From an uncultured Actinomycetota bacterium (lineage in GTDB: Bacteria; Actinomycetota; Thermoleophilia; Solirubrobacterales; Solirubrobacteraceae), in the NCBI GenBank assembly GCA_963695625.1, contig CAVOHJ010000004.1:381743-445742 (forward strand): a stretch of 64,000 nt of DNA, given 5' to 3'. Positions 16,700 through 32,001 of the stretch are shown one piece after another. Made by a program: the position numbers and the translations under genes. Within the stretch, counting starts at the first letter, position 1. Every line of letters begins with the position of its first letter. Under the pieces are notes generated by a model, which made no database searches, was not told where the DNA came from, and saw nothing but the letters and a program-made list of their open reading frames with translations.

Positions 16700-16740
16700 G
16701 CCGACACGCTACCGTCGGCGGCGCGAGCGCGCCAACTCAG

Positions 16741-17781: not shown

Positions 17782-17822
17782 GCGGGAATTGTCGCGCGAG
17801 ACCCGGTGACGAGCGGGAGTCC

Positions 17823-18011
17823 CTAATCGGGCTCGGACACCGGTGCCCGCGTCGCCACAGGTTCACCGGGAGCTGCGAACGCCGCTCGAGCCCCGGCGAG
17901 GACCCCCTGTGGAACTGGGTCGAGCGCGCTCGCGAGCGCGCTCAGCCGATCGATCAGGAGGTCGTTGGCGTCCCGACCGCCTCCCCAGGCGCCGGATCCA
18001 AATGGTTGCAC
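17823..18011 (-). CDS. Small hypothetical protein (62 aa) at the end of the ECF sigma operon
   Basis: High-GC3 ORF with a plausible sequence (...DANDLLIDRLSALASALDPVPQGVLAGARAAF...). GTG start. No family recognised. Confidence 0.3.
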   Translation of the reverse strand: MQPFGSGAWGGGRDANDLLIDRLSALASALDPVPQGVLAGARAAFAAPGEPVATRAPVSEPD

Positions 18012-18053
18012 TGCCTATGAGAGCCGTTTGCGCATGGTCCTGATACAGAGCCG

Positions 18054-18366
18054 TCAGTGGATGGCGTTCTGCATGCGCTGCACGAGCGTCAGGGCCCTCG
18101 GCTCGCTCGCCTGCCACACCCGCTCCAGGTGCCGGGCCGCCGACTCCTCCCGGTTGAGCGCAGCGAGATAGGAGCAGTAGGCGATGTCGTCGTCGCCGCC
18201 CGGTGCGCCAGGCGCGCAGCGCACGCTCGCATTCGCTCTCGGCGATGAACCACGCGAGGTGGGCGTCGTCGAGTCTGCCGACGCGCATCTCGGCGATCGC
18301 GGCCTCGGTGGCGTCAGTCGTGCCGGCGGTGCCGGCGGTGTCGATGGTGTTGGTGGGCTTGGTCAT
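18054..18366 (-). pseudogene. Small helical protein downstream of the ECF sigma (possible anti-sigma/partner), split by one frameshift
   Basis: Frame A reads MTKPTNTID...RLDDAHLAWFIAESECERALRAWRTG. Frame B continues GDDDIAYCSYLAALNREESAARHLERVWQASEPRALTLVQRMQNAIH*. Both frames have coding-like GC3. The junction is near 18195-18205. The gene starts 14 nt after the sigma stop. Confidence 0.5.
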
Positions 18367-18379
18367 CGTGGCGCCTCCT

Positions 18380-18994
18380 TTAGGCGGTCATGAGGGTGAG
18401 GGTTCCCTGGTCGTCCAGTTCGCGCCGCAGACGCGCGAGGGCGCGCTGTCGCGTGGGTCCGATGCTTCCGATGGGGATGTCCAGCGCCGCCGCGATCTCC
18501 TCGTAGGGGAGGCGCGGGTCGGCCATCAGCAGGCGCAGCAGCGCCTGGTCGGAGGGCCGCAGGCGTGCGAAGCTGCGCCACAGCGCGGCGTCGCGCTCGC
18601 TGATGAGCAGCGCCTCTGCCGGAGGCATATCCGGCGACTCGTACTCGGGCGCCTCGGCGCCGTAGAGGACGCTGCGGTCGCTGTCGCGGATGACCCGCAG
18701 GCACTCACGACGGGCCGTCGTGGCCAGCCACGCTCCGACCCGAGCCGGGTCGTTGAGTCGCGTCAGGTGCTCGAAGAGTCGCAGCCACGTCGCCTGCGCC
18801 ACGTCGGCGGCGTTGGCGTCATGGAGGCGATGCGCCCGGGCGATGGCCCAGATCATCGCGCCGAACTCGCGGACGAGCGCGTCCCAGGCGCGCTGGTCAC
18901 CGCCGGCGGCGGCGTGGACCAGCCGCGCCAGACGGTGTCCGGGCAGGCGGTGGCGCGCCGTGCGGGTGTGGGAGTGAGTGAAGGTGACGGCCAT
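18380..18994 (-). CDS. ECF-family RNA polymerase sigma factor
   Basis: Region 2 ...AADVAQATWLRLFEHL...VGAWLATTARRECLRV and region 4 ...LPYEEIAAALDIPIGSIGPTRQRALARLR. ATG at 18994 gives 204 aa; the longer ORF-track extension looks non-coding. Confidence 0.9.
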   Translation of the reverse strand: MAVTFTHSHTRTARHRLPGHRLARLVHAAAGGDQRAWDALVREFGAMIWAIARAHRLHDANAADVAQATWLRLFEHLTRLNDPARVGAWLATTARRECLRVIRDSDRSVLYGAEAPEYESPDMPPAEALLISERDAALWRSFARLRPSDQALLRLLMADPRLPYEEIAAALDIPIGSIGPTRQRALARLRRELDDQGTLTLMTA

Positions 18995-19044
18995 CAGTTC
19001 GGTTCCTTCTGCCTGACCGGGCAGGACGGTCCCGGGCAGAGCGG

Positions 19045-19218
19045 TCATGAGGGGCTCGGCGAGATCGGCTTGATCGCCCGGCGGCGAGTGAGCGCGAAGC
19101 GGCGCACGCGCGAGGGCCTGGGCCAGGGCGCGGCGGCGCGGTGCCCGCCCGACGCACGGTGGAAGTCGGCGATGCGCTCGTTGATCAGCAGCTGTGAGAT
19201 GTGGTGGTTGGCGACCAT
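19045..19218 (-). CDS. Small hypothetical protein (57 aa) upstream of the ECF sigma gene
   Basis: ATG ORF MVANHHISQLLINERIADFHRASGGHRAAAPWPRPSRVRRFALTRRRAIKPISPSPS. The helical N-terminus plus basic tail resembles small actinobacterial proteins of unknown function. Too short to appear in the ORF track. Confidence 0.3.
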   Translation of the reverse strand: MVANHHISQLLINERIADFHRASGGHRAAAPWPRPSRVRRFALTRRRAIKPISPSPS

Positions 19219-19320
19219 GGCTCCGGTGGGGGTTGGGGAAGCGATGGCCGCAACGATCGGGGGCGGCGGTCACCGGCTGGTCACCAGCGATCACCAATTG
19301 CTCACCGACCATTGAGCGGC

Positions 19321-19338
19321 GCTGTTACCGCTGTTACC
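19321..19338. repeat. Perfect tandem duplication GCTGTTACC x2 in the divergent sigma/SARP intergenic region
   Basis: gctgttaccgctgttacc read directly, 9 nt upstream of the proposed GTG start (19348) of the SARP-type regulator. Confidence 0.9.
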
Positions 19339-19347
19339 GTTCAGCCC

Positions 19348-22300
19348 GTGGGGGGCTCTCTGGAGTTGGGGATCCTCGGGCCGCTTCAGGTGCGGATCGG
19401 TGGCGACGACCCGGTCGCCCTCGGAGGCGTTCGCCAGCGGGCGGTCCTCGCCGTCCTCGCGCTCAACGCCGGGCAGGTCGTGTCCACCGATCGTCTCGTG
19501 GACGAGTTGTGGGGCGAGAGCCCGCCCGCCAGCGCCGTCCACACTGTCCAGGTGTTCGTGTCACGGCTGCGCACGCAGCTGGCCGCGGCGAGCGAGCGCC
19601 TCATTACCCGGCCTCCCGGCTACGTGCTGGAGCTGGGCGTCGACGAGATCGACGCGCTGCGCTGTGAGCGGCTCTATGACGGCGCGCGCAGCGCCCTCGC
19701 CGCCGGCGACGCCGGGCGGGCGGCCGCGATGCTGGCGGACGCCCGGGGTCTGTGGCGCGGTCCGCCCCTGGCCGATTTCACCTACGAGCCCTTTGCCCAG
19801 GCGAGCATCGCGCGGCTTGAGGAGCTGCGCCTCAGCTGCCGCGAGGAGCTGATCGACTCTCAGCTCGCTCTGGGGCGCCATGCCGAGGTGATCGCCGACC
19901 TCGAGGCCCTGGTGCGCGAGCAGCCCTTCCGCGAGCGGCCGCGGGGCCAGCTCATGCTCGCGCTGTACCGCTGCGGGCGCCAGGCCGACGCCCTGGAGGC
20001 CTTCCAGGAGGCGCGGCGCGCGCTCGTGGAGGAGCTCGCCGTCGAGCCTGGCAATCCGCTGCGCGAGCTCGAGCAGCGCATCTTGCGCCAGGACCCATCG
20101 CTCATGCTCCCGGCGCCGGACCACGCCGCGCCCGGCGCCCCTCCGGACGGCGATGGGGCCCCCGCGGCGAGGGAGCCGGTCGAGGCGTCACCGGCGGCAG
20201 TGGCCGAGCCGGCGCCCGGGATTGTGCGCAAGAGCGCGACCGTGCTCGTCGCGGAGCTGACCACGACCGCCCAGGCCGATCCGGAGATGACCCGCAATGC
20301 GGTCGCCGCGGCGCGGGCGCGCGCCCAGGAGATCGTGACGCGGCACGGCGGGTCGTTCGTCGCGGGGTTGGGTGGCGAACTTGTCTGGGTGTTCGGTGTG
20401 CCGCTCATCAACGAGGACGACGCGCTGCGGGCGCTGCGCGCCTCGCTGGAGCTGGGCGGCGCCTTTGCGTCGCCAAGACAGGACGAGGTCGCGGTGCGGG
20501 TCGGAGTGGCGTCGGGCGAGGTCGTGCTCGAGAGCGCCACCGATCTGTTCGGTGAGCCGCTCTCCCGTGGGATCGCCCTGGCCCAGGCGGCCGAGAACGG
20601 AGCCATCCTGCTCAGCGAGGTGACGCGCCGGCTGGTCTCCGGTGCCGCGCGGGTCGCGCCCGCGCTTGACGGCGACGCCTGGCGGCTCGACGGGCTGGTG
20701 GAAGACGCGCCGGCTTCACTGATGGCTCATCCGGTCGTCGACCGCGTCGACGAGCTGGCGCTGGCCGGCGCGGCCTTCCGACGGGCGGTTCGAGGCAGTG
20801 AGGCCCACCTGCTGACCGTCGTGGGGGAGCCCGGCATCGGCAAGTCGCGCCTCGGCCAAGAGTCGGCGAGCCGGCTTGCGGGTCAGGCCACTCTCCTCAC
20901 CGGCCACTGCCTGTCCTACGGCGATGGCGTCGCCTTCTGGCCGTTGCGTGAGGCGCTCACCCAGTTCGCCGGCGGCGACTCGCCGGAGGCGATCCGCGGT
21001 CTTATCGAGGACGCCGAGGACGCCGACCTCATCTCCGAGATCGTGGCCGCCTCAGTCGGCCTCACGGACTCAGAGATCCGCCGCGAACAGGTGCCGTGGG
21101 CGTTTCGGCGGCTCCTGGAGCTCGTGGCGCGCGAACGGCCGCTCGAGCTGGTGATTGAGGACACTCACTGGGCGGCGCCGGAGCTACTCGATCTCATTGA
21201 CTATCTCGTGGACTGGGTCAAGGCGCCGGTGCTCATGCTCAACACCGCCCGCCCCGAGCTGCTCGAGGAGCGCCCCGCGTGGGGCGGAGGTCATCCCCGG
21301 GTGAGCTCGATCGTCCTGGGGCCGCTGAGCCGCGACGACGCCGGGACCCTGCTCGACCACCGTCTCGGGGAGCGCCGGCTCAGCGTCGCCGAGCGGGCCG
21401 TCATCCTCGAGACGGCCGAAGGCAATCCGCTTTTCGTCGAGCAGCTGCTGGCGATGAGCGCCGAGAACCCGTGGTGGGACCGCGAGCGGGAGATCCCCGG
21501 CACGCTGCGCAGCCTGCTGGCCGCGCGCATCGACCGGCTCGGCCCCGGCGAGCGCGCCTATATCGAGCGGGCGGCGATCATCGGCCGGGAGTTCTGGCCC
21601 ACCGCGGTGGTGGCGCTCCTCCCCGAAGAGGCGCGCTCCACCGCCGATCAGCACCTCCGCGCCCTCGTCCGGCGCGGGTTCGTGGAGCCCGGAAGCGCGC
21701 CGCTCGCCGGCGAGGAGCAGCTGAGCTTCCATCACATCCTCATCCGCGACGTCGCCTACCGAGGCACCCCCAAGGTTCTGCGCAGTGAGCTGCACGAGCG
21801 CTTCGCCGACTGGCTGGCCCCGCGCGGCGAAGCCTACGAGGAGTTCATCGGGTATCACCTCGAGCGCGCCTTTCGCAACCTGACGGAGGCGGGGCAGGGC
21901 GGCGAGACCGCCGTGGCGCTCGCCGGCCGGGCCGCCGAGAGCCTGTCCAGCGCCGGCCGCCGCGCCCTGTCGCGCGGGAACCCCAACGCCGCGGTCCAGC
22001 TCCTACGCCGCGCCGCCGAGGTATGTGACGCGGTCGAGCGCAAACGCCCCGACATCCTGCTCGATCTCGGCTACGCGCTGAGCGAGAGCGGCGACTACAC
22101 GGAGGCGGAGGAGGTGCTTCACGCGGCCCTCGAGCAGGCCCGGATCACCGGCGCGGAGGCGGTGAGCTCGCGGGCGCTGATCGAGCTTTCCTATCAGCGC
22201 TCGCACGTGGACGCAAGCCTCGGCGCTGCCGAAATGCGGACCGTCGCCGAGCAGGCGATCGCTGTGTTTGAGCGACTGGCTGACGAGGGGGGCCTGTCGC

Positions 22301-23175
22301 GCGCATGGCTTCACATCGCGCTGGTGGAATGGATTCGATCGGACTCCGTCGCCATGGAGGAGGCCCTGCAGCGGGCGCTGACCCATGCCGAGCGCGCGGG
22401 AGAGCGCCGGGACCAGTCGCGGATCCTGATCGATCTGGCCCGGACCACGGTGGTCGGCCCCCGGCCGGCTCGCGACGGCATCCGGCGCTGTCACGAGCTC
22501 CTCAGCCGCGCCGAGGCCGACGTTGCTGCCACCGCGTTCATCGGGGCGATGCTCGCGGTGCTGGAGGCGATGGACGGCCAGTTCGACGGCGCGCGGGCGC
22601 GGTGGCGGCGCAGCAAGCGCCGGCTGGCCGAGGTCGGGCTGAACGTGTCGGTGGCGGTGATCCAGATGTACTACGGCTACATCGAGCTGCTCGCCGACCG
22701 CCCCGAGAACGCCGAGCCGGAGCTCGCCGGGGCATGCGCCGCGTTCGAGCAGCTCGGAACCCGCGGCCATCTCAGCTCCGCCGCCGGGCTCGCCGCCCGG
22801 GTGCACTACGCCCACGGGTCGTACGACGAGAGCGCGCGCTACTGCCGGATGAGCGAGGAGGCCGCATCCGATGACGACGCCGTCTCGCAGGTGCTGTGGC
22901 GCTCGACGAAGGCCAAGCTGCTGGCCCGCGCCGGGGAAGGCCAGCCAGCCGAGGCTTTGGCCGGCGACGCGGTCCGGCTCGCCGACGGGACGGACTTCCT
23001 CATGATGCGCGGCGACGCTCTGACCGATCGCGCCGAGGTGCTGGCGATCCTCGGCCACGTGGCGCCGGCGGGCGCGGATCTCGAGGCGGCGAGCGTGCTC
23101 TACGAGCGCAAGGGGATCGGCGCGACGGCCAATCTCGCCCGTCGCGCGCTGGCGGTGACCGGCGGGGGCGCCTGA
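19348..23175 (+). CDS. Multidomain regulator: SARP (OmpR-type wHTH + BTAD), class III cyclase-homology domain (degenerate), P-loop NTPase, TPR/helical repeats
   Basis: LGILGPLQV...RQRAVLAVLAL...LVDELWGE (wHTH), BTAD helices (...LMLALYRCGRQADALEAFQEARRALVEELAVEPG), cyclase-like KSATVLVAELTTT...GGELVWVFG, and Walker A GEPGIGKSRL. Then a long helical C-terminus. The first 49 codons of the ORF-track model are rejected. Confidence 0.85.
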   Translation: MGGSLELGILGPLQVRIGGDDPVALGGVRQRAVLAVLALNAGQVVSTDRLVDELWGESPPASAVHTVQVFVSRLRTQLAAASERLITRPPGYVLELGVDEIDALRCERLYDGARSALAAGDAGRAAAMLADARGLWRGPPLADFTYEPFAQASIARLEELRLSCREELIDSQLALGRHAEVIADLEALVREQPFRERPRGQLMLALYRCGRQADALEAFQEARRALVEELAVEPGNPLRELEQRILRQDPSLMLPAPDHAAPGAPPDGDGAPAAREPVEASPAAVAEPAPGIVRKSATVLVAELTTTAQADPEMTRNAVAAARARAQEIVTRHGGSFVAGLGGELVWVFGVPLINEDDALRALRASLELGGAFASPRQDEVAVRVGVASGEVVLESATDLFGEPLSRGIALAQAAENGAILLSEVTRRLVSGAARVAPALDGDAWRLDGLVEDAPASLMAHPVVDRVDELALAGAAFRRAVRGSEAHLLTVVGEPGIGKSRLGQESASRLAGQATLLTGHCLSYGDGVAFWPLREALTQFAGGDSPEAIRGLIEDAEDADLISEIVAASVGLTDSEIRREQVPWAFRRLLELVARERPLELVIEDTHWAAPELLDLIDYLVDWVKAPVLMLNTARPELLEERPAWGGGHPRVSSIVLGPLSRDDAGTLLDHRLGERRLSVAERAVILETAEGNPLFVEQLLAMSAENPWWDREREIPGTLRSLLAARIDRLGPGERAYIERAAIIGREFWPTAVVALLPEEARSTADQHLRALVRRGFVEPGSAPLAGEEQLSFHHILIRDVAYRGTPKVLRSELHERFADWLAPRGEAYEEFIGYHLERAFRNLTEAGQGGETAVALAGRAAESLSSAGRRALSRGNPNAAVQLLRRAAEVCDAVERKRPDILLDLGYALSESGDYTEAEEVLHAALEQARITGAEAVSSRALIELSYQRSHVDASLGAAEMRTVAEQAIAVFERLADEGGLSRAWLHIALVEWIRSDSVAMEEALQRALTHAERAGERRDQSRILIDLARTTVVGPRPARDGIRRCHELLSRAEADVAATAFIGAMLAVLEAMDGQFDGARARWRRSKRRLAEVGLNVSVAVIQMYYGYIELLADRPENAEPELAGACAAFEQLGTRGHLSSAAGLAARVHYAHGSYDESARYCRMSEEAASDDDAVSQVLWRSTKAKLLARAGEGQPAEALAGDAVRLADGTDFLMMRGDALTDRAEVLAILGHVAPAGADLEAASVLYERKGIGATANLARRALAVTGGGA

Positions 23176-23178
23176 GGC

Positions 23179-24369
23179 TCAGGGCGGAGGCGGCTCGTCT
23201 GAGAACGCCAGGTCAAGGGGGGACCCGTCCGGTGCGCGCGGGCCACAGCCCGCCATGGCAAGCACCCCCTCGGTGACGCCGTCAAGGCTCAGCCGCTGCT
23301 CGATGTCGCGGCCGTTGATCGCGATGGTGACAAACGCCCCCAGGCCGAGGTCCGCGCTGACGAGGTACAGCGTCTGGCTGAGGTGCGCGGCGTCCATGAG
23401 CATCCCGGCGTAGGCCCGGTCGTGGCCGCGATACTTCCAGTGGTTGCGGGCAAAGCGCGCGGTGAGCACGAATGACACGTGCGCCGCGCCGAAGAAGCTC
23501 TGGCCGGCCATGAACGCGGTGGCGGCATCGCGGCTCGCAGCCGCGTCGAGGTCGGCCAGTCGGATCAGCGCGTGGTCGCGCGCGTTGTAGTGGTAGATCC
23601 CGGGCTCGACGCCGCTCACGTTGCTGATGACCGGATAGGCCTCCACCGGGTGTAGTGCGCCGCCCGACGGGCTCGTGCGCTTGATGCACAGCACGCCGGC
23701 GGCGTTGCGCGCGTAGCCGTGACACCCGAAGACATAGCGCAGCACGGTGTCGAGTTGCTCGAGCGTCATCGGCGTGTCAGGGTCGAAGGCCCGCGTCGTG
23801 CGCCTGGCCATCAGGACGTCGTACAGCTGCCCGTCACGCTCGATGCCGGGGAGGGCGAGCGCCGCGCCCGGGCGCTCGGTCGCGAACTCCGGCGGCGGCG
23901 GGCCGTGGCGCTCGAGCAACGCCTGCGCGGCGCTCTCGACGTTCGCCCGCAGCAGTGCCAGGTCCTCCTCGCCCTCGGCACCCTCCACGCCGCTCCATTG
24001 AGTCATGTAGTGGTACGTCGCGGCGAACACGTTCCACTGGGCACCGAACAGCGCCTCGTCGCGGTTGCGTAGTTCCGCCGGCCGTCCGTCCGGCGCGTCG
24101 CTGAGGAGGAGGCCCTTGTCGGTCAGTGAGCTCACTGCGGCCGGGGACAGTTCGCGATCGTTGATCCACTGTCCCGCAGGCACTTGCGCCACGGCCTCGA
24201 ACTCGGTCGGCGTGAGCCGGTGGCGCTCCCCGGTCAAAAGCGCCAGCGCCCGCACCCGCGCCCGGCCGGGTGCAGAGGGCAGCTCGCCCCGCAGCAGCGC
24301 TGCGGGGTCGAGCCGAAGGTCGTCCTCGAGGTAGTAGAAGGCGAAGAGGGTCCGCCGGACCCGCGCCAT
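23179..24369 (-). CDS. SagB/ThcOx-type FMN-dependent dehydrogenase (nitroreductase superfamily) with an N-terminal extension of about 180 aa
   Basis: RRTTRAF (FMN-phosphate R-x-T-x-R) and the SagB hallmark KRTSPSGGALHPVEAYPV. A nitroreductase-like C-terminal half. RBS GGCGGAG and a 15-nt gap after the upstream gene. Confidence 0.85.
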   Translation of the reverse strand: MARVRRTLFAFYYLEDDLRLDPAALLRGELPSAPGRARVRALALLTGERHRLTPTEFEAVAQVPAGQWINDRELSPAAVSSLTDKGLLLSDAPDGRPAELRNRDEALFGAQWNVFAATYHYMTQWSGVEGAEGEEDLALLRANVESAAQALLERHGPPPPEFATERPGAALALPGIERDGQLYDVLMARRTTRAFDPDTPMTLEQLDTVLRYVFGCHGYARNAAGVLCIKRTSPSGGALHPVEAYPVISNVSGVEPGIYHYNARDHALIRLADLDAAASRDAATAFMAGQSFFGAAHVSFVLTARFARNHWKYRGHDRAYAGMLMDAAHLSQTLYLVSADLGLGAFVTIAINGRDIEQRLSLDGVTEGVLAMAGCGPRAPDGSPLDLAFSDEPPPP

Positions 24370-24384
24370 GGCCGGCCGCTCCGC

Positions 24385-25650
24385 CTACGGCATCAGGCGG
24401 CAGAGCCAGCTGGCCAGGTCGGGGTCCGACGCGTTGGAGTCCAGGATGTTCGAGATTCTCTCCTGTCGCTCGAGCAACGCGAGGATCGCGCCCAGATCAC
24501 CCGGCTTATCGTGCGTCCTCACGCGGTTCGTGTCGGGGATCTTGTACTTGTCGAGCAGGTCCTGCGGGTCGCGCCGGCTGTCGCGCGCGTCTCTGAGCAA
24601 CGTGATGATGTCATGCAACGTCGGAGGTGGCGGGGCATTGAGGTACTTGATGACGTCGCCGACGTCGCGCCGGAAGCGCTCTCCGTAGTCCGACCACGCC
24701 TTATTGGGGATCGTCACCGCCGCCCCGGTCGCGCGTGCTCTCCGCGACCTCAGCGCCACCTGGTCACGCGAGAACCGCGAGACGAAGTCGTCGGGGAGCG
24801 GAGGCGCCCCCGCCTCGTCCGCGTCCCCGGCGCCGGGTGGCGGCGGGGCGCCAGGCCCGTCGCCCTTGAGCGGTCCGATCGAGAGGTGAGAAGCCGCGGT
24901 CCCGCAGACGAGCGGTGGTTCGCTGGAGCCGGTTTCGGCCGTGGGGCCCGTGGGCGCGGCGGCAGACGCCTGCCACACCGAGTTGGGAGGATCGTAACTG
25001 CGCCAGCTCAGGTATCCCCCGTCGGCGATTTCGAGGGGGTTGCTCACCGTGCCGAGGAATGAGCACCGGCGTGGGTGGCCTCCAGTGACCTGATAGTAGT
25101 GCTGTGTCACAAAGTCGGACACGGTGACACCGTCGATGGTGTAGCTGGCGCCCTCAACGGGGTCGCACGGCTCGACGAGGTAGTCGACTGTGCCCTGCTC
25201 GGCATACTGGCCACCTCCGGTGCCGCCTGCCGCTGCGTTGACGGGGTCCTGTCCCGTCGCTCGGTGATACTCGTCACGCAGGGACGGCCCGCTGACGGTG
25301 AGGAGCCCACTCGGATCGAGCACCATCTCCATCAGTTCGTGGCTCGCCGAGAGCGACCAACCGCCGTCCTCGTGAACGAGGGCAAACGGCCGGCCGTCAG
25401 CCGCCACGTGGAAGCCGTGATGATCGCCCGGCAGGTCGTCCGGCGTGACGATCACCGGGAGGTATTGAGGCGGTAGGTCCTCGAGGCAGAGGAACGGCGT
25501 GACGACCGCCGAGACCCCCCAGGCCGGACCGAAGTCACGGCTGAGCTGGGTCTGCAGCGCCGACGCGACCAGCACCAGCTCTCGTTGGAACAGTTGGCTG
25601 GTCTCCTTCAAACCCCGATGGGGGACCAACGCAACCTGTGTGGTGAACAT
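24385..25650 (-). CDS. Hypothetical protein (421 aa), no recognisable family; operon partner of the SagB-type dehydrogenase
   Basis: Strong GC3 coding signal. GGAG lies 9 nt upstream of ATG 25650 (alternative TTG at 25659). N-terminal globular part has GDHHGFHV and SASHELMEMVLDP. A Pro/Gly/Ala-rich linker follows, then a helical C-terminal domain ending ...DPDLASWLCRLMP. Confidence 0.8.
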   Translation of the reverse strand: MFTTQVALVPHRGLKETSQLFQRELVLVASALQTQLSRDFGPAWGVSAVVTPFLCLEDLPPQYLPVIVTPDDLPGDHHGFHVAADGRPFALVHEDGGWSLSASHELMEMVLDPSGLLTVSGPSLRDEYHRATGQDPVNAAAGGTGGGQYAEQGTVDYLVEPCDPVEGASYTIDGVTVSDFVTQHYYQVTGGHPRRCSFLGTVSNPLEIADGGYLSWRSYDPPNSVWQASAAAPTGPTAETGSSEPPLVCGTAASHLSIGPLKGDGPGAPPPPGAGDADEAGAPPLPDDFVSRFSRDQVALRSRRARATGAAVTIPNKAWSDYGERFRRDVGDVIKYLNAPPPPTLHDIITLLRDARDSRRDPQDLLDKYKIPDTNRVRTHDKPGDLGAILALLERQERISNILDSNASDPDLASWLCRLMP

Positions 25651-25757
25651 ACGCGTCAACTCCGATCCGCCGGATCCAGTAACAGTCCGGGTTCACGTTG
25701 CGCCCCGCCGACCGACGAGAGCGCTCGGATCCCTCGGTCCTACCGTCGTCACACCGA

Positions 25758-25819
25758 CATAGTGTGTGTTTGACACCGCGCCCCAGTGTTACGGAACCGG
25801 CCCCGATTCCCACACTATG
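25758..25819 (-). promoter_or_regulatory. Nested inverted repeats in the low-GC leader of the 421-aa/SagB operon (RNA structure or operator)
   Basis: CATAGTGTG (25758-25766) is the exact reverse complement of CACACTATG (25811-25819). An inner pair GGAACCGG / CCGATTCC (25793-25810) pairs fully in RNA with one G-U. Confidence 0.5.
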
Positions 25820-25830
25820 GGAGTAGCTAC

Positions 25831-25920
25831 TCATATCGGACACTCCAAGTCAAGCGATCGAGGTGGACAGGGGGGTATCGCGGCGCAGGAAGTGAACAAA
25901 AGCTCCTCATTGCTCACCAT
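25831..25920 (-). CDS. Candidate 29-aa Cys/Pro-rich peptide ORF (possible precursor peptide; speculative)
   Basis: ATG preceded by GAGG at a 7-nt spacing. Translates to MVSNEELLFTSCAAIPPCPPRSLDLECPI. Lies in a low-GC leader on the operon strand. GC3 is only about 60%, so coding status is uncertain. Confidence 0.22.
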   Translation of the reverse strand: MVSNEELLFTSCAAIPPCPPRSLDLECPI

Positions 25921-26006
25921 GACGTGGCCTCGGCCGGTTGGGCGTGTGACCCGCTCGGGAGTTCCCCGATGCTCCCTCGCGGGCCACACGCGCCATCGTC
26001 GGTGAT

Positions 26007-26165
26007 CTAACCGGTCGCCCCACCGGCCGCCGCAATGATCACCAGCGCCCCCACAAGTGCGACGGCGAAGACGCCGAGAGCGATGAGGACGATGCCGGCG
26101 ACCGCATGCCTCGCGGCCGCCGTGATCGCCCGGCAGCTTGGTCTGATCCATCGGTCTCGTGTCAC
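26007..26165 (-). CDS. Small single-pass membrane protein (52 aa)
   Basis: GTG start with GAGGAAG 8 nt upstream. Translates to VTRDRWIRPSCRAITAAARHAVAGIVLIALGVFAVALVGALVIIAAAGGATG. Very high GC3 through the TM segment. Below the ORF-track length cutoff. Confidence 0.5.
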   Translation of the reverse strand: MTRDRWIRPSCRAITAAARHAVAGIVLIALGVFAVALVGALVIIAAAGGATG

Positions 26166-26263
26166 GCAACACTCTTCCTCGCTGGGTCATGGATGTCTGG
26201 TAGGCGAGAGGCGCGAGGGGGCCTGGCTGATACACGGCGCCCCCGGCGATCCGCTAGATCTGT

Positions 26264-28066
26264 GTGATCGCCGCGCGCAACCTCGTCAACCTCAAGTCGG
26301 TCGCCAAGGGCTACGGCAGCCGCTCGGTGCTGCGCGACGTGACCCTGGGCGTCAACGAGGGCGAGCGCATCGGGGTGGTGGGAGACAACGGGGCCGGCAA
26401 GTCGACCCTGCTGCGTCTGCTCGCCGGCGCCGAGGCGCCCGACGCCGGGATCGCCACGCTCACCACCGGGCTGCACGCGGTCCTCATCGCCCAGGGCGTG
26501 GACCTCGATCCGGACGGCACGGTGCGCGCGGAGCTGATCGGCCACCGGCCGGACCACGAATGGGCGCGCGATGCCGCCCTCCGCGAGGTCCTCGACGGCC
26601 TCCTCGGCGGCGTGGCCGTGACGCGGTTTCCACACGGTCTGGAGACGCCCACGCGGCAGCTGTCCGGCGGCGAGCAGCGCCGCGTCATGCTCGCCCGCGC
26701 CCTGCTGGAGGCTCCGGAGCTGCTGCTGCTCGACGAGCCCACCAACCATCTCGACATCGAAGGGATCGCGTGGCTGGCCTCATTCCTGGCCGGCCATCGC
26801 GGCACGCTCGCGGTCATCACCCACGACCGGTGGTTCCTGGACGCGGTCTGCGACCGGACCTGGGAGGTCGCCGGTGGCGGCGTCTACCAATACGACGGCG
26901 GCTATTCGGCGTACGTGCTCGCGCGCGCCGAGCGCGACCGGCAGGCTGCGGCGCGCGAGGACAGGCGCCGCCAGCTGGTGCGCAAGGAGCTGGCGTGGCT
27001 GCGCCGGGGGCCGCCCGCGCGCACGTCCAAGCCGAAGTTCCGCATCGACGCGGCCAATGCGCTCATCGCCGACGAGCCGCCGGCGCGCGACACGGTGGAG
27101 CTCCTGCGCTTCGCCACCGCGCGGCTCGGAGACCGGGTGCTCGACGCGGTCGACGTGTCGGTGGCCTACGGCGAACGCCGGCTGCTCTCCCACGTCACCT
27201 GGCGGCTGGGGCCGGGGCAGAGGGCGGCGGTGGTCGGCGCCAACGGCTCGGGCAAGACGACGCTCCTCCGTCTCCTGGCAGGCGATCGGGCGCCGGACGC
27301 GGGCGAGGTGCAGCGCGGCGCCACGGTCAAGCTGGCCGAGCTCTCGCAGGACACCGCCGAGCTCCCGCCCGGCCTGCGCGTCGTCGAGGCGCTGGCCGAG
27401 GTCCGCGGCCGGGCGACCACGAGCGGCGGCGAGGAGCTCACTCCGGGCACGCTGGCGGAGCGGTTCGGCTTTCGCGGCGAGCGCCTGAGCACCCGCACCA
27501 GCGACCTGTCAGGCGGCGAGCGCCGCCGCCTCCAGCTCATGCGGCTGCTCCTCACCGAGCCCAACGTGCTGTTGCTCGACGAGCCCACCAACGACCTGGA
27601 CATCGACACGCTCAGGGCGCTGGAGGATCTGCTCGACGGCTGGCCGGGCACGCTGATCGTCGTCACCCATGACCGCTACTTCGCCGAGCGCGTATGTGAC
27701 GACGTGTTCGCGCTCATGGGCGACGGGGGGCTGCGCCACCTCCCGGGAGGCGTCGATCAGTACCTCGAGCTCCGGGCCGAGGCGACCGCGGTGCCGGCTG
27801 CCTCCAGCTCCGAGCGGTCGCCCCGCCGTCCGGGCGCACCGAGCCCGGGCGCCCAGCGCCGGGCGGCGCAGAAGGAGCTCGCTCGGGTGGAGCGCGAGCT
27901 CGAGCGCGCCGAGCGCCGCGACGCGGAGCTCCAGGCGGAGATGGTCGCGGCGGCCACCGATGCCGCGCGCCTGGACGAGCTCACGCGCGAGCTCGGCGCG
28001 GTGGCCTCGGACCGCGAGCGGCTGGAGGCATCGTGGCTCGAGCTGTCCGAGAGCCTCGAAGGCTGA
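26264..28066 (+). CDS. ABC-F family ATPase (two ABC cassettes, no TM domain)
   Basis: Walker A GDNGAGKST and GANGSGKTT, signatures LSGGEQRR and LSGGERRR, inter-domain linker, coiled-coil C-terminal tail. Confidence 0.92.
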   Translation: MIAARNLVNLKSVAKGYGSRSVLRDVTLGVNEGERIGVVGDNGAGKSTLLRLLAGAEAPDAGIATLTTGLHAVLIAQGVDLDPDGTVRAELIGHRPDHEWARDAALREVLDGLLGGVAVTRFPHGLETPTRQLSGGEQRRVMLARALLEAPELLLLDEPTNHLDIEGIAWLASFLAGHRGTLAVITHDRWFLDAVCDRTWEVAGGGVYQYDGGYSAYVLARAERDRQAAAREDRRRQLVRKELAWLRRGPPARTSKPKFRIDAANALIADEPPARDTVELLRFATARLGDRVLDAVDVSVAYGERRLLSHVTWRLGPGQRAAVVGANGSGKTTLLRLLAGDRAPDAGEVQRGATVKLAELSQDTAELPPGLRVVEALAEVRGRATTSGGEELTPGTLAERFGFRGERLSTRTSDLSGGERRRLQLMRLLLTEPNVLLLDEPTNDLDIDTLRALEDLLDGWPGTLIVVTHDRYFAERVCDDVFALMGDGGLRHLPGGVDQYLELRAEATAVPAASSSERSPRRPGAPSPGAQRRAAQKELARVERELERAERRDAELQAEMVAAATDAARLDELTRELGAVASDRERLEASWLELSESLEG

Positions 28067-28095
28067 CGCAAGTGTGCGATGCTCGGGCGCAGGCC

Positions 28096-29151
28096 ATGAG
28101 GTCACGCGTCACCAGCCCGCTGCTCCTCGTCGGCAGCCTGCCCGCCGAGTCCACCGATGCGGCCCTGCGGGCCGGCGCCAACCTGTTCGGCGACCTCGTG
28201 TTCGCGCTGCCCGACGGCGAGACCGGTGCCCGGGCGGCGTGGGTGAGCTACGAGCGCGAACAGCTGGCTCGGCCCAACCCCGACGTCGTGGTGGTGCACG
28301 AGACCGAGTCCCCCACCGGCCGTCCCCGCCACGCCTACGAGACACCGGTGTTCGGGATCCGCCCCGGGGTCAGCGAGCTGCATTTCGACTCCTGGCCCCG
28401 GATCGATGACGCCATCGCCTCCTACCAGGAGTTCAAGGCGCTCAAGGAGGACGGCGTCATCCCCGCGGGGCTTCGCTTTCAGGTGGGCCTGCCCTTCCCG
28501 TCCAGCGCGCTGAACGCGTTCAAGGCCGACTTCGCCGGCGATTACCCGGTCGCCGAGCGGGGCTTCGAGAAGCTCGTGGCCCGCGAGATCGTCCGCCTGA
28601 CGGATGCCATCCCGTCGCAGGAACTGGCCATCCAATGGGACCTCGCCTACGAGACCCAGGACATCGAAGGCGTGCTGGCCTGGACCGCCGAGGGTGCGTG
28701 GGAGCGATTCGCCCGGCCGGTCACCACGCTCACCCCGCTCATCCCCGACGAGGTGCTGGTCGGCTACCACCTCTGCTACGGCACCTTCCCCGAGTGGCCT
28801 ATGTACGAGGCCCGCGACTACGGGGTGCTCGTCCGCATGGCGAATTTCGCGGTGGCCAACTCGGGCCGCGTCGTCGACTGGCTGCATCTGGCCGGTCCGC
28901 GCTACCTGCGCAGCGAGGACCGCAGCTTCTTCCGCCCGCTCGTGGACCTCGAGCCCGGGCCGGCGCGCGTGTTCCTGGGCATCGTGCTCCCGCTGGACGG
29001 CGTCCCGGGCCTCGAGCGCCGGCATGCCACGGCGTCGCGCTACATCTCAGACTTCGGCGTGGCCATGTACTGCGGGTTCGGCCGCCAGCCGGGTGAGGAC
29101 GGGATGGAGACCATGCGCGAGCACAGCCGCGTCGTCCGCTCCCTGGGCTGA
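28096..29151 (+). CDS. Hypothetical protein (351 aa), possibly MetE/UROD-like TIM-barrel fold
   Basis: Clear coding signal. ...LLLVGSLPAES... start and ...VGYHLCYGTF... suggest cobalamin-independent methionine-synthase-like proteins, but I cannot confirm the family. Confidence 0.6.
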   Translation: MRSRVTSPLLLVGSLPAESTDAALRAGANLFGDLVFALPDGETGARAAWVSYEREQLARPNPDVVVVHETESPTGRPRHAYETPVFGIRPGVSELHFDSWPRIDDAIASYQEFKALKEDGVIPAGLRFQVGLPFPSSALNAFKADFAGDYPVAERGFEKLVAREIVRLTDAIPSQELAIQWDLAYETQDIEGVLAWTAEGAWERFARPVTTLTPLIPDEVLVGYHLCYGTFPEWPMYEARDYGVLVRMANFAVANSGRVVDWLHLAGPRYLRSEDRSFFRPLVDLEPGPARVFLGIVLPLDGVPGLERRHATASRYISDFGVAMYCGFGRQPGEDGMETMREHSRVVRSLG

Positions 29152-31143
29152 CCCACCATCGCGCGAGGCGGACGGGTCGAGCCTCGCGCACAACGCGGCG
29201 ATGACCTCGGGGTCGAACTGCGTCCCGGCGCAGCGGCGCAGCTCGGCCAGGGCGTCGGGCACGGTACGCGCGGTCTGGTAGCAGCGATCCGAGGTCATGG
29301 CGTCGAACGCATCGCAGGCGGCGATGATCCGCGCTCCCAGAGGGATGGAGGCGCCGGCGAGCCCGTCGGGGTAGCCGCCACCGTCCCAGCGCTCGTGGCT
29401 GGCCCTGACCAGGCGCGCCACCGGCTGAAGCACGGGGTCCGCGTTGAGGATCCGCTCGCCGATGGCGGAGTGCTGGCGCATGAGGCGCCACTCGTCTTCG
29501 TCAAGGGGGCCCCGCTTGTCGAGGATGGCGTCGGGGATGCCCAGCTTGCCCACGTCGTGCAGCTCGGCGGCGCGCAGCAGCTCGTCGAGCTGGTCGCCAT
29601 CCAGGCCGAAGTCGGCGCCGAGGTCGCGGACGAGCTGGCCCACGCCATGGACGTGATAATGCAGATCCGGGGTGCGCTCGGTGAGCACCTGCATGAGTAC
29701 CTCGTGGGTGCGCGGCGGGGTGCTGCGGCTGGTGCGGATCTTGGCCGCGTACATGCGCTGGTCGGCCAGCTGCAGGGCGGCGGTAGTGGTGGCCGCCTCG
29801 TCAGGGATGGTGGCCAGGCCGTGCGCGGCGCTGACGCTGAACGTGCTGCCCTCCTCCCTGAGCGCGGTCGTCGCGGCTTTGATCAGCGCGTCATCGCGGG
29901 CCACGCGGCCATTGAGGAGCAGGCAGAACTCGTCGCCGCCCAGTCGGTAGGCCTCTCCGTGAGCGCCGATGGCGTCGCGCAACGCCGCGCCCAGCCGGGC
30001 GAGGAGCGCGTCGCCCGCGGCATGGCCGAAGGTGTCGTTGTAGCGCTTGAAGCCGTTGAGGTCGAAGAACACGAGCGTGCGCGGGTGGCCCTCGTCAGCG
30101 ACCGCGACAGCCTCCTCGAGATCGCGCAGCAGTCGCCGCCGGTTGCCCAGTCCGCTGAGCCCGTCGGTGACGGCGTCCTCGGCACTGCGGCGCAGCATCC
30201 GCACGTTCTCCATGTAGGTCATGAGCGCCCGGGCGACTCCGAGCAGGATCGTGGCCGCCGCCAGCGCGACCGCGACGGGGGTGACGTGCGCGAAGGCGGC
30301 GTCGACGAGCAACCCGAGCACGGCGGTCACCGACAGGAGCGGGAGAACGATCGACTGGAAGGCGACGTTGCGCGTGGCGGTGCGACGCTTCATCGGCTGC
30401 CAGGCGGCCACGGCAAACATGGCCATGGCCGCGGGCCATGTGGTGTCCAGGATGCCCCCCGCGACGTAGGTCCCCTTGGCCGCCTGGTAGGTGAAGACGA
30501 GGTCGGCGACGGACTCCAGGACCAGCGCGAGCCCCAGCCACGCCCACACGCGATCGGGGCGCCAGGACGACAGGCCGAAGGCCACGGCGACGAACACCAG
30601 CAGCGTCACGTCGCCCAGGGGGTAGGCGAGGTTGACGGCGTCCTCGATGGTGCGCCCGTGGCTGACCGCCAGCACGGTCGGCAGGATGAGTCCTGTTCCG
30701 ACGGCGGCGAGCGCGAGCGCCACGACGCCGCCGTCGAGCCACTGCTCGGCTGCGACATGCCCGCGGTGTGAGCGGATCAGCAGCATCAGCGCCGCGTACG
30801 TCGACGGGTACATGGCCAGGTACAGCCAGTCGGCGATCGACGGAACCGGCGGATCGGCGAGGTTGTTGAGCCACAGCGTCCACACCAGGTCTCCGGCCGT
30901 CCAGGTGAGCAGCCCGACGGCGATGAGCCCCCACGCCCAGCGGTCCTCGCGGCGACGCCACACCCGCGCGGCGCAGATGGCCACGGCGAGGATCTCGGCG
31001 GCGGTGTAGATCCAGTTCTTGGCGAACGCCTCCATGCCGACGCCCCCGAAACCCAGCAGGGCGTGCGCCGCGTGGAAGCCGACGGCCAGCCACATCGCGG
31101 CAAACGCGAGGGTCAGGAGCGGGTGTCGAGGTGATGTGCGCAT
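29047..31143 (-). CDS. Integral-membrane sensor with GGDEF diguanylate cyclase and HD-GYP phosphodiesterase domains
   Basis: About 8-9 N-terminal TM helices. GLGNRR...FFDLNGFKRYND...YRLGGDEFCLLL (GGDEF). HDVGKLGIPD and HERWDGGGYPDGL (HD-GYP). The 3' tail overlaps the convergent gene by 105 nt. Confidence 0.9.
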   Translation of the reverse strand: MRTSPRHPLLTLAFAAMWLAVGFHAAHALLGFGGVGMEAFAKNWIYTAAEILAVAICAARVWRRREDRWAWGLIAVGLLTWTAGDLVWTLWLNNLADPPVPSIADWLYLAMYPSTYAALMLLIRSHRGHVAAEQWLDGGVVALALAAVGTGLILPTVLAVSHGRTIEDAVNLAYPLGDVTLLVFVAVAFGLSSWRPDRVWAWLGLALVLESVADLVFTYQAAKGTYVAGGILDTTWPAAMAMFAVAAWQPMKRRTATRNVAFQSIVLPLLSVTAVLGLLVDAAFAHVTPVAVALAAATILLGVARALMTYMENVRMLRRSAEDAVTDGLSGLGNRRRLLRDLEEAVAVADEGHPRTLVFFDLNGFKRYNDTFGHAAGDALLARLGAALRDAIGAHGEAYRLGGDEFCLLLNGRVARDDALIKAATTALREEGSTFSVSAAHGLATIPDEAATTTAALQLADQRMYAAKIRTSRSTPPRTHEVLMQVLTERTPDLHYHVHGVGQLVRDLGADFGLDGDQLDELLRAAELHDVGKLGIPDAILDKRGPLDEDEWRLMRQHSAIGERILNADPVLQPVARLVRASHERWDGGGYPDGLAGASIPLGARIIAACDAFDAMTSDRCYQTARTVPDALAELRRCAGTQFDPEVIAALCARLDPSASRDGGSAQGADDAAVLAHGLHPVLTRLAAEPAVHGHAEV

Positions 31144-31362
31144 GAACCCGTGCCGCCCCGGGGCACGGACCATCGGGCGCGACCCACAATGTATCGGCGC
31201 CGCAACGGCGCAACTCAAACGCCTCGCCCGCGAGCCGTCCACAGGCGCAGAGATGACGGACGGCGTGTGCCGCCCGTCATCGCGCCGGGCCCCGTTGTCC
31301 GGCGGCCTGGCACCGCCCCCAAAAGAGGGGAAACGGGGGCGGTCCAGGGCCAGGGAAGCCCG

Positions 31363-32001
31363 TCAGCCGTGGTTGAACGGCGCCACCATCGGGTTGGTGC
31401 CGGTGTAGATCCCGGTGTAGTTCGGGTACCAGACCCAGAAGTGGAGCGTGATCAGGCGCGGGTGCCAGAAGTTGAACTTCGCGCCCGACCCCGGCGCCGT
31501 CGTGGCGCACTTGGACTGGGAGTCCGCGAACACGACGGTGCCGTCGTCGTAGTGGCAGGCCGCGCCGAAGACGCCGTACTTGGCGCCGGGCAGGGGCGCC
31601 TTGGCCGGCATCGAGGTGAACACCCACTCCAACGCTCCCAGCTGCCAGCCGTGGGCCGTGTGCTCGTAAACCAGGATCGGCGGCTTGCGCACGTCAAAGC
31701 CGGTGATCTTGGGGTTGATGAAGTGGTAGCCCATGTTGGGGATCATCTTGGTGAGGATGCCGTAGCCGTCGGCCTTGGCCCGCGCCAGGTTGGTGGCGTA
31801 CTTGGCGGTCGCCATCCGGGCCGCGACGAGGTTCGCGGTCACCGCCGACCCGCTCGCGGGGACCGCGGCCGGCACCGGCGCGGGCGCTGTCTGCGGCGCG
31901 ACGGCGCTGGTGTTCGGCCGGCCCGATGCCGAGGCGGCCATTCCGATCGCCACGCTCGCCACCGCAGCGGCCAGCATGGCTCCGATCAACATGCGACGCA
32001 T
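31363..32001 (-). CDS. Secreted hypothetical protein (212 aa)
   Basis: AAGGAG RBS, signal peptide MRRMLIGAMLAAAVASVAIGMAASASG, Pro/Ala linker, then an aromatic-rich domain (WHPRLITLHFWVWYPNYTG). No family recognised. Confidence 0.7.
   Translation of the reverse strand: MRRMLIGAMLAAAVASVAIGMAASASGRPNTSAVAPQTAPAPVPAAVPASGSAVTANLVAARMATAKYATNLARAKADGYGILTKMIPNMGYHFINPKITGFDVRKPPILVYEHTAHGWQLGALEWVFTSMPAKAPLPGAKYGVFGAACHYDDGTVVFADSQSKCATTAPGSGAKFNFWHPRLITLHFWVWYPNYTGIYTGTNPMVAPFNHG

Follow-up and report, generated by a model that had tools for sequence, protein, structure and literature searches.

What a SagB-type dehydrogenase may act on where none of its customary partner enzymes is encoded is the question raised by a locus in a 64,000-nt stretch of DNA (the window; ~72% G+C) from an uncultured soil bacterium of the Solirubrobacteraceae (contig CAVOHJ010000004.1, positions 381,743 to 445,742). 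On the minus strand, a gene for a 421-aa protein precedes the dehydrogenase gene, and a gene for a large regulator converges on the pair. The three large genes are real genes forming a conserved cassette. Its identity can be given with high confidence: it derives from a three-gene system comprising a putative modified peptide (TIGR04509), a putative maturation dehydrogenase (TIGR04511) and a cyclase protein of the STAND type (signal transduction ATPases with numerous domains). The fuller interpretation, toward which the evidence leans slightly, is that the locus is a Solirubrobacterales/Thermoleophilia derivative of this cassette in which a peptide-maturation module is coupled to a STAND sensor-regulator, possibly for signalling. 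Within a cassette defined by hidden Markov models (HMMs) and otherwise unstudied, what is new is a fused precursor, a rewired sensor output and an allelic block exchange. The three genes are as follows.

23179-24369, minus strand: SagB-related flavin mononucleotide (FMN) dehydrogenase of the TIGR04511 family (396 aa), with an N-terminal extension (aa 1-~185) and a nitroreductase-fold domain bearing the Lys-Tyr motif HWKYRGH
24385-25650, minus strand: 421-aa fusion protein and putative precursor, with a zincin-like N-terminal domain, a disordered linker and a C-terminal domain related to nitrile hydratase leader peptides (NHLP) that ends in a conserved tail
19201-23175, plus strand: AfsR-like STAND regulator (1324 aa; Pfam, homology), composed of a Streptomyces antibiotic regulatory protein (SARP) part (Trans_reg_C + BTAD), a degenerate cyclase-homology domain, a P-loop NTPase (AAA_16) and tetratricopeptide repeats (TPR)

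Identity and conservation of the cassette

All three open reading frames (ORFs) were confirmed, and with them the coordinates and spacings of the initial annotation: 15 nt separate the 421-aa gene from the dehydrogenase gene, and the convergent dehydrogenase and regulator genes have stops 3 nt apart. The G+C content of third codon positions (GC3) is 0.83-0.89 in all three, a coding-type bias. The 421-aa gene is counted from its ATG, and the mechanical ORF begins at TTG 25659; the family alignment, in which all homologs begin with M[FL]TTQVALVP, supports the ATG at 25650.

The dehydrogenase matches TIGR04511 (SagB_rel_DH_2, putative peptide maturation dehydrogenase) with 317 bits against a cut-off of 240 (E = 1.7e-94; profile positions 2-371 of 380) and TIGR03605 with 115.8 bits against 78.4. 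The SagB-type assignment and the TIGR04511 membership suggested in the initial annotation are thereby upheld, and a generic nitroreductase identity is ruled out by the curated cut-off. The motifs RRTTRAF and KRTSPSGGALHPVEAY are present as quoted in the initial annotation, and all 43 homologs compared keep W311-K312-Y313, which aligns with the ThcOx/CyaGox WKY. A Foldseek search with the AlphaFold2 (AF2) model (mean predicted local distance difference test, pLDDT, 71) returned ThcOx as the best match (8pz5/5lq4, E = 1.6e-15; the ~410 aligned columns take in the N-terminal extension). Next come BmdC and McbC and, further down, the AlbAB cyclodipeptide oxidases, which have the nitroreductase fold and dehydrogenate C-alpha-C-beta bonds. 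The family counts 1191 homologs at E <= 1e-20, and the N-terminal extension evolves at a rate equal to or above that of the catalytic domain. A match on a Streptomyces plasmid (H2) was set aside: the SagB surroundings there are of another kind and include a radical-SAM enzyme, a methyltransferase and a transporter of the major facilitator superfamily (MFS).

To our knowledge, SagB-type dehydrogenases are known only as azoline oxidases that act after a YcaO cyclodehydratase. The window enzyme shares the nitroreductase fold, the Lys-Tyr motif and the ThcOx-like N-terminal extension with the azoline oxidases SagB, McbC and ThcOx of thiazole/oxazole-modified microcin (TOMM) and cyanobactin pathways, and with the nonribosomal peptide synthetase oxidase BmdC. 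In contrast to these, it has no YcaO or other cyclodehydratase within 10 kb or in the related loci examined, and its candidate cores are poor in Cys, Ser and Thr. Pfam scans of the flanks likewise agree with the initial annotation that no YcaO, E1-like, LanB/C, radical-SAM, protease or exporter gene lies within ~10 kb. Because no cyclodehydratase occurs in any related locus and the tails are poor in Cys/Ser/Thr, azoline-to-azole oxidation is, judged from gene content, excluded as the reaction; since the TIGR04511-type family always occurs without YcaO and with tails of few or no Cys/Ser/Thr, it would have to catalyze something else.

Every full-length homolog of the 421-aa protein for which a contig was examined is encoded directly upstream of a nitroreductase-family gene, which is followed by a convergent SARP/AAA_16 gene of ~1300 aa; this order is kept where identity falls to 33% and where the flanks are unrelated. 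Among 185,579 scanned species genomes, 234 relatives turned up, with the trio in ~20 genomes, all of them Solirubrobacterales, Thermoleophilia or unclassified Actinomycetota metagenome-assembled genomes (MAGs), and a search from the dehydrogenase side found it on three further contigs, L092 among them. Since the trio recurs in ~20 species-level genomes and several metagenome contigs whose flanks differ, its adjacency is far beyond chance, and the pairing of the 421-aa gene with the dehydrogenase gene, which had been put up for a neighbourhood check, is conserved. A chance adjacency of a generic nitroreductase with unrelated genes, for which nothing speaks beyond the lack of a Pfam match for the 421-aa protein, is refuted by the TIGR04511 score above cut-off, by this recurrence and by the canonical cassette found elsewhere, and its probability is practically nil.

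That canonical cassette was found in a metagenome scan with the dehydrogenase alignment, which returned 80 loci. In at least 40 of them, a gene for a cyclase+NTPase+TPR protein of ~1000-1130 aa lies upstream on the same strand, then the peptide gene, then the TIGR04511 dehydrogenase gene, so that the three-gene arrangement named in the initial annotation does exist. The canonical peptide is an NHLP-like protein of 95-118 aa encoded in the 300-400-nt gap between the cyclase protein and the dehydrogenase. Two of the metagenome peptides exceed the TIGR04509 cut-off of 34 bits, genuine peptides scoring 38.5, 41.9 and 37.7 bits; the reference TIGR04509/TIGR04511 gene pair on Sinorhizobium meliloti pSymA scores 38.5 and 270 bits. 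No literature was found on TIGR04509 or TIGR04511 by accession or name, and the system is defined by comparative genomics only. By sequence, the window dehydrogenase is a member of this cassette at 317 bits, the peptide is a divergent, fused homolog that retains leader-like helices and the tail motif, and the third gene encodes a derived homolog of the cyclase+NTPase+TPR protein. The differences are equally clear. The canonical peptide stands alone at ~95-118 aa with a long, hydrophobic tail, whereas that of the window is fused behind a ~260-aa zincin-like domain and has a short, amphipathic tail; the canonical STAND gene is co-directional and upstream, whereas that of the window is convergent and downstream, has lost the catalytic residues and has gained a SARP part.

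Individual loci depart from these arrangements. L157 (5250-5934) has two tandem NHLP-like peptide genes between cyclase and dehydrogenase, and L155 has an upstream NTPase-TPR gene plus a downstream convergent gene with a SARP domain. Around the TIGR04511 loci L100, L102 and L090 (S. meliloti pSymA), no gene of the cyclase/STAND kind is present within ~6 kb; the pSymA pair of peptide and dehydrogenase genes adjoins an S8 subtilisin-like protease gene, and a second NHLP/Nif11-like peptide gene and a tetrapyrrole-methylase-like gene are close by. In L092 (4981-5953), the N-terminal part of the precursor gene is split over two frames, which reflects a pseudogene or a long-read assembly error.

The fused putative precursor protein

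The 421-aa protein has no match in Pfam or NCBIfam. A word-indexed search of 5.8 billion proteins gave 59 homologs, all unnamed and none with a Pfam domain, and the sequence profile of the family finds no relative of solved structure. From the family alignment and the AF2 model (pLDDT 75; predicted template modelling score, pTM, 0.74), three regions can be distinguished, namely a confident alpha/beta domain (1-~260), a disordered linker (263-315) and a helical domain (316-~402) that runs into the conserved tail.

24871-25650, minus strand: N-terminal alpha/beta domain (aa 1-~260), with a weakly zincin/metzincin-like fold and an HExxE motif
24706-24864, minus strand: Pro/Gly/Ala-rich linker (aa 263-315) of variable length, predicted to be disordered (pLDDT < 50) and aligned to an indel-rich region
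24388-24705, minus strand: C-terminal helical domain (aa 316-421), by family profiles a homolog of stand-alone NHLP-related peptides of the TIGR04509 type, which belong to the ribosomally synthesized and post-translationally modified peptides (RiPPs)
24388-24429, minus strand: C-terminal tail SDPDLASWLCRLMP, the most conserved stretch of the C-terminal domain and a candidate modification site

The initial annotation had found no family for this protein and no evident NHLP-like peptide at the locus. As regards Pfam and NCBIfam the first statement stands, but the C-terminal domain can be assigned to NHLP-related peptides by profile-profile comparison, and the second must be revised. When the C-termini (~140 aa each) of 16 family members were scanned singly, seven matched TIGR04509 (best E = 9.7e-8), three NF038399 (Os1348, NHLP-clan) and two TIGR03793. 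Aligned by hhalign, the family profile of the C-terminal domain gave a probability of 93.8% against the S. meliloti TIGR04509 peptide and of 96.1% against 12 canonical peptides (E = 3e-9, 67 columns). The tails are also alike: the family consensus is FGPDLxDPDLAxWLCxLxx (of 32 members, 30 have the Trp and 23 the Cys), and canonical peptides end in a motif like that of the window (ADPFAFWLFVILLAA, SPFGFAVAFVVMSGS and similar). Since the domain is homologous to the TIGR04509 peptides and the tails agree, the "missing" peptide is the C-terminal domain of the 421-aa protein. It differs from the stand-alone TIGR04509 size (~90-120 aa) in being fused behind a ~260-aa domain and a linker, and as the C-terminus of the 421-aa protein it ends 15 nt upstream of the dehydrogenase start. 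The tail of the window has a single Cys, canonical tails have 0-4 Cys/Ser/Thr within their last 20 residues, and a Cys/Ser/Thr-rich core of the TOMM type is absent. Searched against the 5.8-billion-protein set, the profile of the C-terminal domain returned one fragment only, and against solved structures this profile and that of the canonical peptides gave only marginal matches, to nitrile hydratase alpha.

The same evidence bears on whether the 421-aa protein could instead be an enzyme or scaffold whose NHLP-like domain merely docks the dehydrogenase, the substrate being another peptide or a small molecule encoded elsewhere. The enzyme-like invariant residues of the N-terminal domain and the divergence of the window domain from TIGR04509 would fit such a role, and the pTM of 0.74, an overall score that carries no inter-domain error estimate, is compatible with packing of the two domains against each other. 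No other conserved small ORF accompanies the cassette, however; in canonical cassettes the homologous ~100-aa peptide is the sole candidate substrate, and the extreme C-terminal tail is the best-conserved part, as in precursors with a fixed product. A scaffold role is thus considered very unlikely, and the C-terminal domain is preferred as the putative substrate.

The N-terminal domain has neither a Pfam nor a PDB match at the sequence level. Over 61 sequences from many phyla, W44, H81, P88, S103-H104-E105, E108, D112, D163-P164, D179-F180 and G212 are invariant, and E160 and C162 nearly so. The set includes the motif H104-E105-L-M-E108 with D112, that is, an invariant HExxE...D, and HEXXH is absent; together, these residues look like a metal-dependent active site. 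In Foldseek, the top matches are all metzincin-type catalytic domains (ADAM-8, adamalysins, ADAMTS, matrix metalloproteinases), but they are weak, with none at E <= 0.001 and the best at E = 5.5e-3 (prob 0.99, target template modelling score 0.38, root-mean-square deviation ~5 A). An exhaustive profile search collected 4749 representatives at E <= 1e-3, a family for which no Pfam model exists, and ~60 of the clusters span both domains. Stand-alone homologs of 240-290 aa occur in many phyla and never adjoin a dehydrogenase, from which it follows that the C-terminal domain is the part that travels with the enzyme. Elsewhere, the domain is N-terminal to Metallophos, Lipase_3, KAP NTPase or PNP_UDP_1 domains (P0050, P0236, P0253, P0275, P0294), which suggests an N-terminal processing or regulatory module joined to varied payloads.

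When the neighbours of stand-alone N-terminal-domain genes were clustered, no universal partner was found. A kinase-STAND gene is located 1.4-2.7 kb from such a gene in 6-8 related loci of Thermoleophilia; in L032, L035, L037, L039, L054 and L062 (Miltoncostaeaceae and other Thermoleophilia), the gene is downstream of a giant Ser/Thr-kinase + STAND gene. This proximity may mean a functional link or plain shared synteny.

Fusions to lipase, phosphoesterase, nucleoside-phosphorylase-like and KAP NTPase domains are a pattern typical of effector shuffling, and the cassette could accordingly be viewed as an intracellular conflict or stress module. The STAND protein would then sense some other cue, the 421-aa protein would be an effector or pro-protein whose payload is freed or activated by the zincin-like domain, and the dehydrogenase would be accessory. 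STAND NTPases are common in defence, the block described below is polymorphic, and in L008 (3960-7456) Trypco1, CHAT-domain and stand-alone cyclase genes, types often found in conflict systems, are directly upstream of the cassette. Nevertheless, the window trio has no match in PADLOC, and canonical cyclases match PycC only as generic class III cyclases. A payload homologous to RiPP-type leader peptides, strict linkage to a peptide dehydrogenase and an output through a SARP DNA-binding domain also make a conflict module quite unlikely.

The regulator, the exchanged block and the surroundings

The initial annotation had seen a convergent SARP/cyclase-like/P-loop/TPR protein, and the Pfam profiles agree, with Trans_reg_C at 44.5 bits, BTAD at 152.3, a cyclase domain below threshold, AAA_16 at 63.2 and TPR_19 at 26.7. 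For the SARP part, the structural matches are AfsR and EmbR (E = 1e-39 to 1e-44), of which the AfsR-type large SARP regulators (8hvr, 8jke, 8k60) reach 1e-42 to 1e-44. Although the STAND architecture is also shared with the latter, the window protein has a cyclase-homology domain between BTAD and NTPase, reaches only 200 bits (SARP part only) against the NF053617 equivalog cut-off of 1430, and has a sensor part that by ancestry belongs to the peptide cassette. Compared by phmmer with canonical cassette proteins, its NTPase-TPR part scores E = 1e-143 to 1e-187 and its cyclase-like part E = 1e-10 to 1e-17. By sequence, the 1324-aa protein is a homolog of the third, cyclase+NTPase+TPR member of the cassette. 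A further comparison is offered by the TOMM system kinase/cyclase fusion TIGR03903, which, like the cassette, is tied to NHLP-type peptide systems. The cyclase-NTPase-TPR part of the window protein scores 160 bits and canonical cyclases 168-226 with this model, all far under its 706-bit cut-off, and the window protein has no kinase domain. The cyclase model named in the initial annotation, TIGR04510, returned no match for the window protein at E <= 10 or for canonical cassette cyclases, but it is apparently missing from the NCBIfam copy searched.

20233-20700, plus strand: cyclase-homology domain (aa ~345-500), lacking both metal-binding Asp residues, the transition-state Asn and Arg, and the KGK hairpin

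These losses were read from alignments to the class III cyclases 2w01 and 3mr7 and to canonical cassette cyclases, which keep FIGDAVMAVFG, and the cyclase-like domain of the window is probably catalytically dead. Canonical cyclase proteins, several with an N-terminal zinc ribbon, keep FxDVxGST, KFIGDAVMAVFG, GDAVNxAxRLE and VKGK; every SARP-fused version lacks both metal-binding Asp residues, the Asn, the Arg and the KGK hairpin. An intermediate is found in L024 (Solirubrobacterales MAG, 2452-8061), which has the fused precursor and the dehydrogenase together with a convergent protein of zinc ribbon, intact cyclase, NTPase and TPR without SARP. From the apparently intact canonical cyclases, the losses in SARP-fused versions and L024, it follows that the NTPase+TPR core stayed with the peptide/dehydrogenase pair while the output went from cyclase to DNA binding. 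In L029, an N-terminal-domain gene adjoins a gene for a zinc-ribbon/cyclase/NTPase/TPR protein without SARP, and no dehydrogenase gene is present.

Three observations concern the 5' side of the regulator gene. Its true start is probably near 19335, directly downstream of a tandem direct repeat of two copies of GCTGTTACC (19321-19338, plus strand); a similar CTGTTAC occurs in the leader of the 421-aa gene beside a CCGGA...TCCGG hairpin before the ribosome-binding site (~25665-25690). Divergent from the regulator gene (17863-19215, minus strand) are a small ORF of ~57 aa, a gene for an extracytoplasmic function (ECF) sigma factor (Sigma70_r2) and a ~100-aa gene, as in several variant loci (L001, L002, L008, L093); in L003, an M50-like (site-2 protease) gene occupies the position of this operon. 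The ECF sigma operon may be a target of the regulator.

A comparison of the window with the related locus L002 revealed that a block of the cassette had been replaced.

20200-25750, unstranded: allelic block comprising the regulator sensor part, the dehydrogenase and the precursor, from the comparison of the window with L002

Between these two loci, the flanks are 97-100% identical in nucleotide sequence (~25750-32250 and ~16650-20200), and the region between them is 46-86% identical. In SARP/BTAD, the synonymous divergence (dS) is 0.02; across the rest of the regulator (cyclase-like, NTPase, TPR), the dehydrogenase gene and the gene of the 421-aa protein, it is 0.84-1.4. One breakpoint falls at residue ~333, where BTAD meets the cyclase-like domain, and the other in the 5' leader, ~100 nt ahead of the start codon. 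Relative to L002, the window block was replaced by a divergent allele as a unit. The closest allele to it is that of L010, with amino-acid identities of 97% in the sensor part, 93% in the dehydrogenase and 85% in the precursor, and the L010 flanks are only 92-94% identical to the window. The tail alleles differ as well, DPDLASWLCRLMP in the window and DPDFACWTCYLMP in L002. A second, weaker and partial pair is L022/L028, with flanks of 94-96% and precursors of 69% identity. The precursor is the fastest-evolving gene in every comparison, and its C-terminal domain has the highest ratio of nonsynonymous to synonymous divergence (dN/dS), 0.44-0.53. Such modular exchange suggests the pattern expected of a co-adapted ligand, enzyme and receptor. 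In polymorphic peptide-pheromone loci such as staphylococcal agr and Bacillus comQXP, the variable genes are those for precursor and modifying enzyme together with the sensing portion of the receptor gene, and the DNA-binding output and the flanks are conserved. The window block likewise spans precursor, enzyme and sensor part and leaves the output module and flanks constant; in contrast, the protein families are unrelated, the cassette of the window has no exporter, and only one or two allele pairs are seen.

The allelic diversity could also be the outcome of an arms race if the locus were a cluster for a secreted, bacteriocin-like antimicrobial RiPP with the SARP protein as pathway activator. 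SARP regulators classically activate antibiotic clusters, and the precursor evolves fast. Moreover, in Pseudomonas sp. Os17, loss of an NHLP-clan small protein or of a SagB-type dehydrogenase lowers antibiotic activity (PMC7726476). Against this explanation, no exporter, immunity gene or leader-cleaving ABC transporter is found in or near the cassette, and the tail of the C-terminal domain is conserved rather than a hypervariable core. Furthermore, the regulator sensor part is swapped along with the precursor, and the partner of the canonical peptide is a nucleotide cyclase instead of a transcription factor, which an antibiotic pathway leaves unexplained. An antimicrobial cluster is therefore regarded as unlikely, and coupling of peptide maturation to a sensor-regulator is retained as the preferred explanation.

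Upstream of the 421-aa gene, one element is widely conserved.

25824-25855, minus strand: promoter-like motif CTTGACTTG-N10-GATATGAGTAGCTA, ~170 nt upstream of the 421-aa start codon

Of 23 variant loci, 17 carry it in the form CTTGACTTG-N10-GATRTGAGTAGCTA, 100-240 nt ahead of the start codon, among them loci whose 421-aa homologs are only 33-45% identical; GATRTGARTAGCTA is found a single time in the window and likewise in each matching locus. The motif is probably the promoter of the 421-aa gene, as predicted from its conservation; a generic scan for sigma-70 promoters and terminators called none, including at this motif. The initial annotation had counted a structured leader and two small ORFs as parts of the unit, none of which could be confirmed. 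The 29-aa Cys/Pro-rich ORF (25831-25920) has a GC3 of 0.60, hence no coding bias, and overlies the promoter-like motif, and was rejected as a precursor peptide on both counts. The 52-aa ORF (26007-26165, minus strand), which has no meaningful NCBIfam match, encodes a single-transmembrane (TM) protein of 44-52 aa (MDQT...VGALVIIAA(A/T)GGATG) conserved in L001, L002, L010 and L011; it is kept only in the closest relatives with shared flanking synteny, is absent from distant cassette loci, and was rejected as a cassette part for this reason. Its frame is maintained in L010 despite an 81-nt deletion, and owing to a 1-nt indel relative to L002 the window frame is kept only from a GTG start 13 nt upstream. 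Folded as a single sequence, the leader is no better than shuffled sequences (z = -0.47); it matches no Rfam family, and a consensus fold of five near-identical leaders has no informative covariation. The whole 600-nt intergenic region is conserved in the closest relatives, including this ORF and an inverted repeat, both of which are absent from distant loci. The repeat, a perfect 9-bp one (CATAGTGTG ... CACACTATG, 25758-25818, minus strand) at the 5' end of the leader, does not vary among the five closest loci and may serve as an RNA hairpin or as an operator bound by a protein.

In the wider flanks, Pfam scans identified genes for an ECF sigma factor, an Iso_dh (isocitrate/isopropylmalate dehydrogenase-family) enzyme, an aminotransferase, a SnoaL-like protein, a TMEM175 channel, a cupin, a MarR regulator, an oxidoreductase that binds cyclic nucleoside monophosphates (cNMP), an ABC-F protein, a GGDEF/HD-GYP protein, a GAF-GGDEF-EAL protein and a GntR-aminotransferase. 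The neighbouring ABC protein thus has the ABC-F architecture, that is, the non-transporter type. Second-messenger genes are abundant nearby: 10953-12638 (plus strand) encodes the cNMP-binding pyridine-nucleotide-disulphide oxidoreductase, 29047-31242 (minus strand) the GGDEF-HD-GYP protein and 32016-34187 (plus strand) the GAF-GGDEF-EAL protein.

Possible mechanism and its meaning

The nearest experimental system is cluster OS3 (Os1348-Os1351) of Pseudomonas sp. Os17, which encodes an 85-aa NHLP-clan protein (PDB 6LK7), a GNAT (GCN5-related N-acetyltransferase), a gluzincin/HEXXH-like protein and a 650-aa SagB-type dehydrogenase but no YcaO (PMC7726476). Deletion of its small protein or of its dehydrogenase has the effect on antibiotic activity described above, and the genetics indicate that the two work together (PMC7726476). 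Both loci thus combine an NHLP-like protein, a zincin-type protein (in the window, a domain whose fold resembles zincins only weakly) and a SagB-type dehydrogenase with no YcaO, and some C-terminal domains of the 421-aa family match the Os1348 model NF038399. In contrast to the window, the OS3 dehydrogenase has 650 aa and is not of the TIGR04511 type, the peptidase has a gene of its own and a true HEXXH, and the cluster has a GNAT, an adjacent resistance-nodulation-division (RND) efflux system and Gac/Rsm control and no STAND, cyclase or SARP partner.

On the basis of these comparisons, a possible mechanism can be proposed for the window cassette. The dehydrogenase would dock on the NHLP-like domain through its ThcOx-like N-terminal extension and, with FMN as cofactor, oxidize the conserved C-terminal tail (DPxLAxWLCxL), and release may fall to the zincin-like N-terminal domain as a built-in peptidase. 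Sensing of the modified peptide, or of the precursor-enzyme complex, could then be the task of the NTPase-TPR part of the STAND protein. Canonical cassettes would turn this signal into a cyclic nucleotide, and the Solirubrobacterales/Thermoleophilia variant would pass it straight on to SARP-dependent transcription. Joint swapping of precursor, dehydrogenase and sensor part, with the DNA-binding module and promoter constant, would give co-adapted specificity groups. Taken in full, this would amount to an unrecognized class of peptide signalling, in which YcaO-independent SagB oxidation of a Trp/Phe-containing tail, zincin-like release, TPR-NTPase sensing, an output rewired from cyclic nucleotide to SARP and co-adapted alleles are joined; in this complete form the proposal is tentative and rather doubtful.

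Several points weigh against the preferred interpretation. The cassette has no exporter in the ~10 kb flanks scanned by Pfam, and an extracellular signal would need one. The C-terminal 139 aa of the window protein itself, for which a TIGR04509 search had been suggested, match neither this nor any other NHLP model even at E <= 10, the homology being drawn from family profiles. The AF2 confidence for the tail is low, and the N-terminal domain has HExxE instead of HExxH and the weak structural matches given above (best E = 5.5e-3, score 0.38). SARP-dependent promoters typically lack a good -35 hexamer; since the conserved promoter-like motif has one, autoregulation is not indicated. The dN/dS ratio is below 1 everywhere, and the block exchange is seen in one clear pair (window/L002) and one weaker (L022/L028); because all of these sequences are metagenome-assembled, a chimeric assembly could underlie it.

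The Solirubrobacterales/Thermoleophilia variant provides handles on the cassette, as the putative substrate is physically joined to its candidate releasing peptidase and natural allele swaps predict which parts must match. The output of the sensor partner would be readable because the SARP domain should act on a promoter. The analysis also brings to light a zincin-like family of thousands of proteins without a Pfam model. The cassette would also tie RiPP-like maturation to STAND and cyclic-nucleotide signalling.

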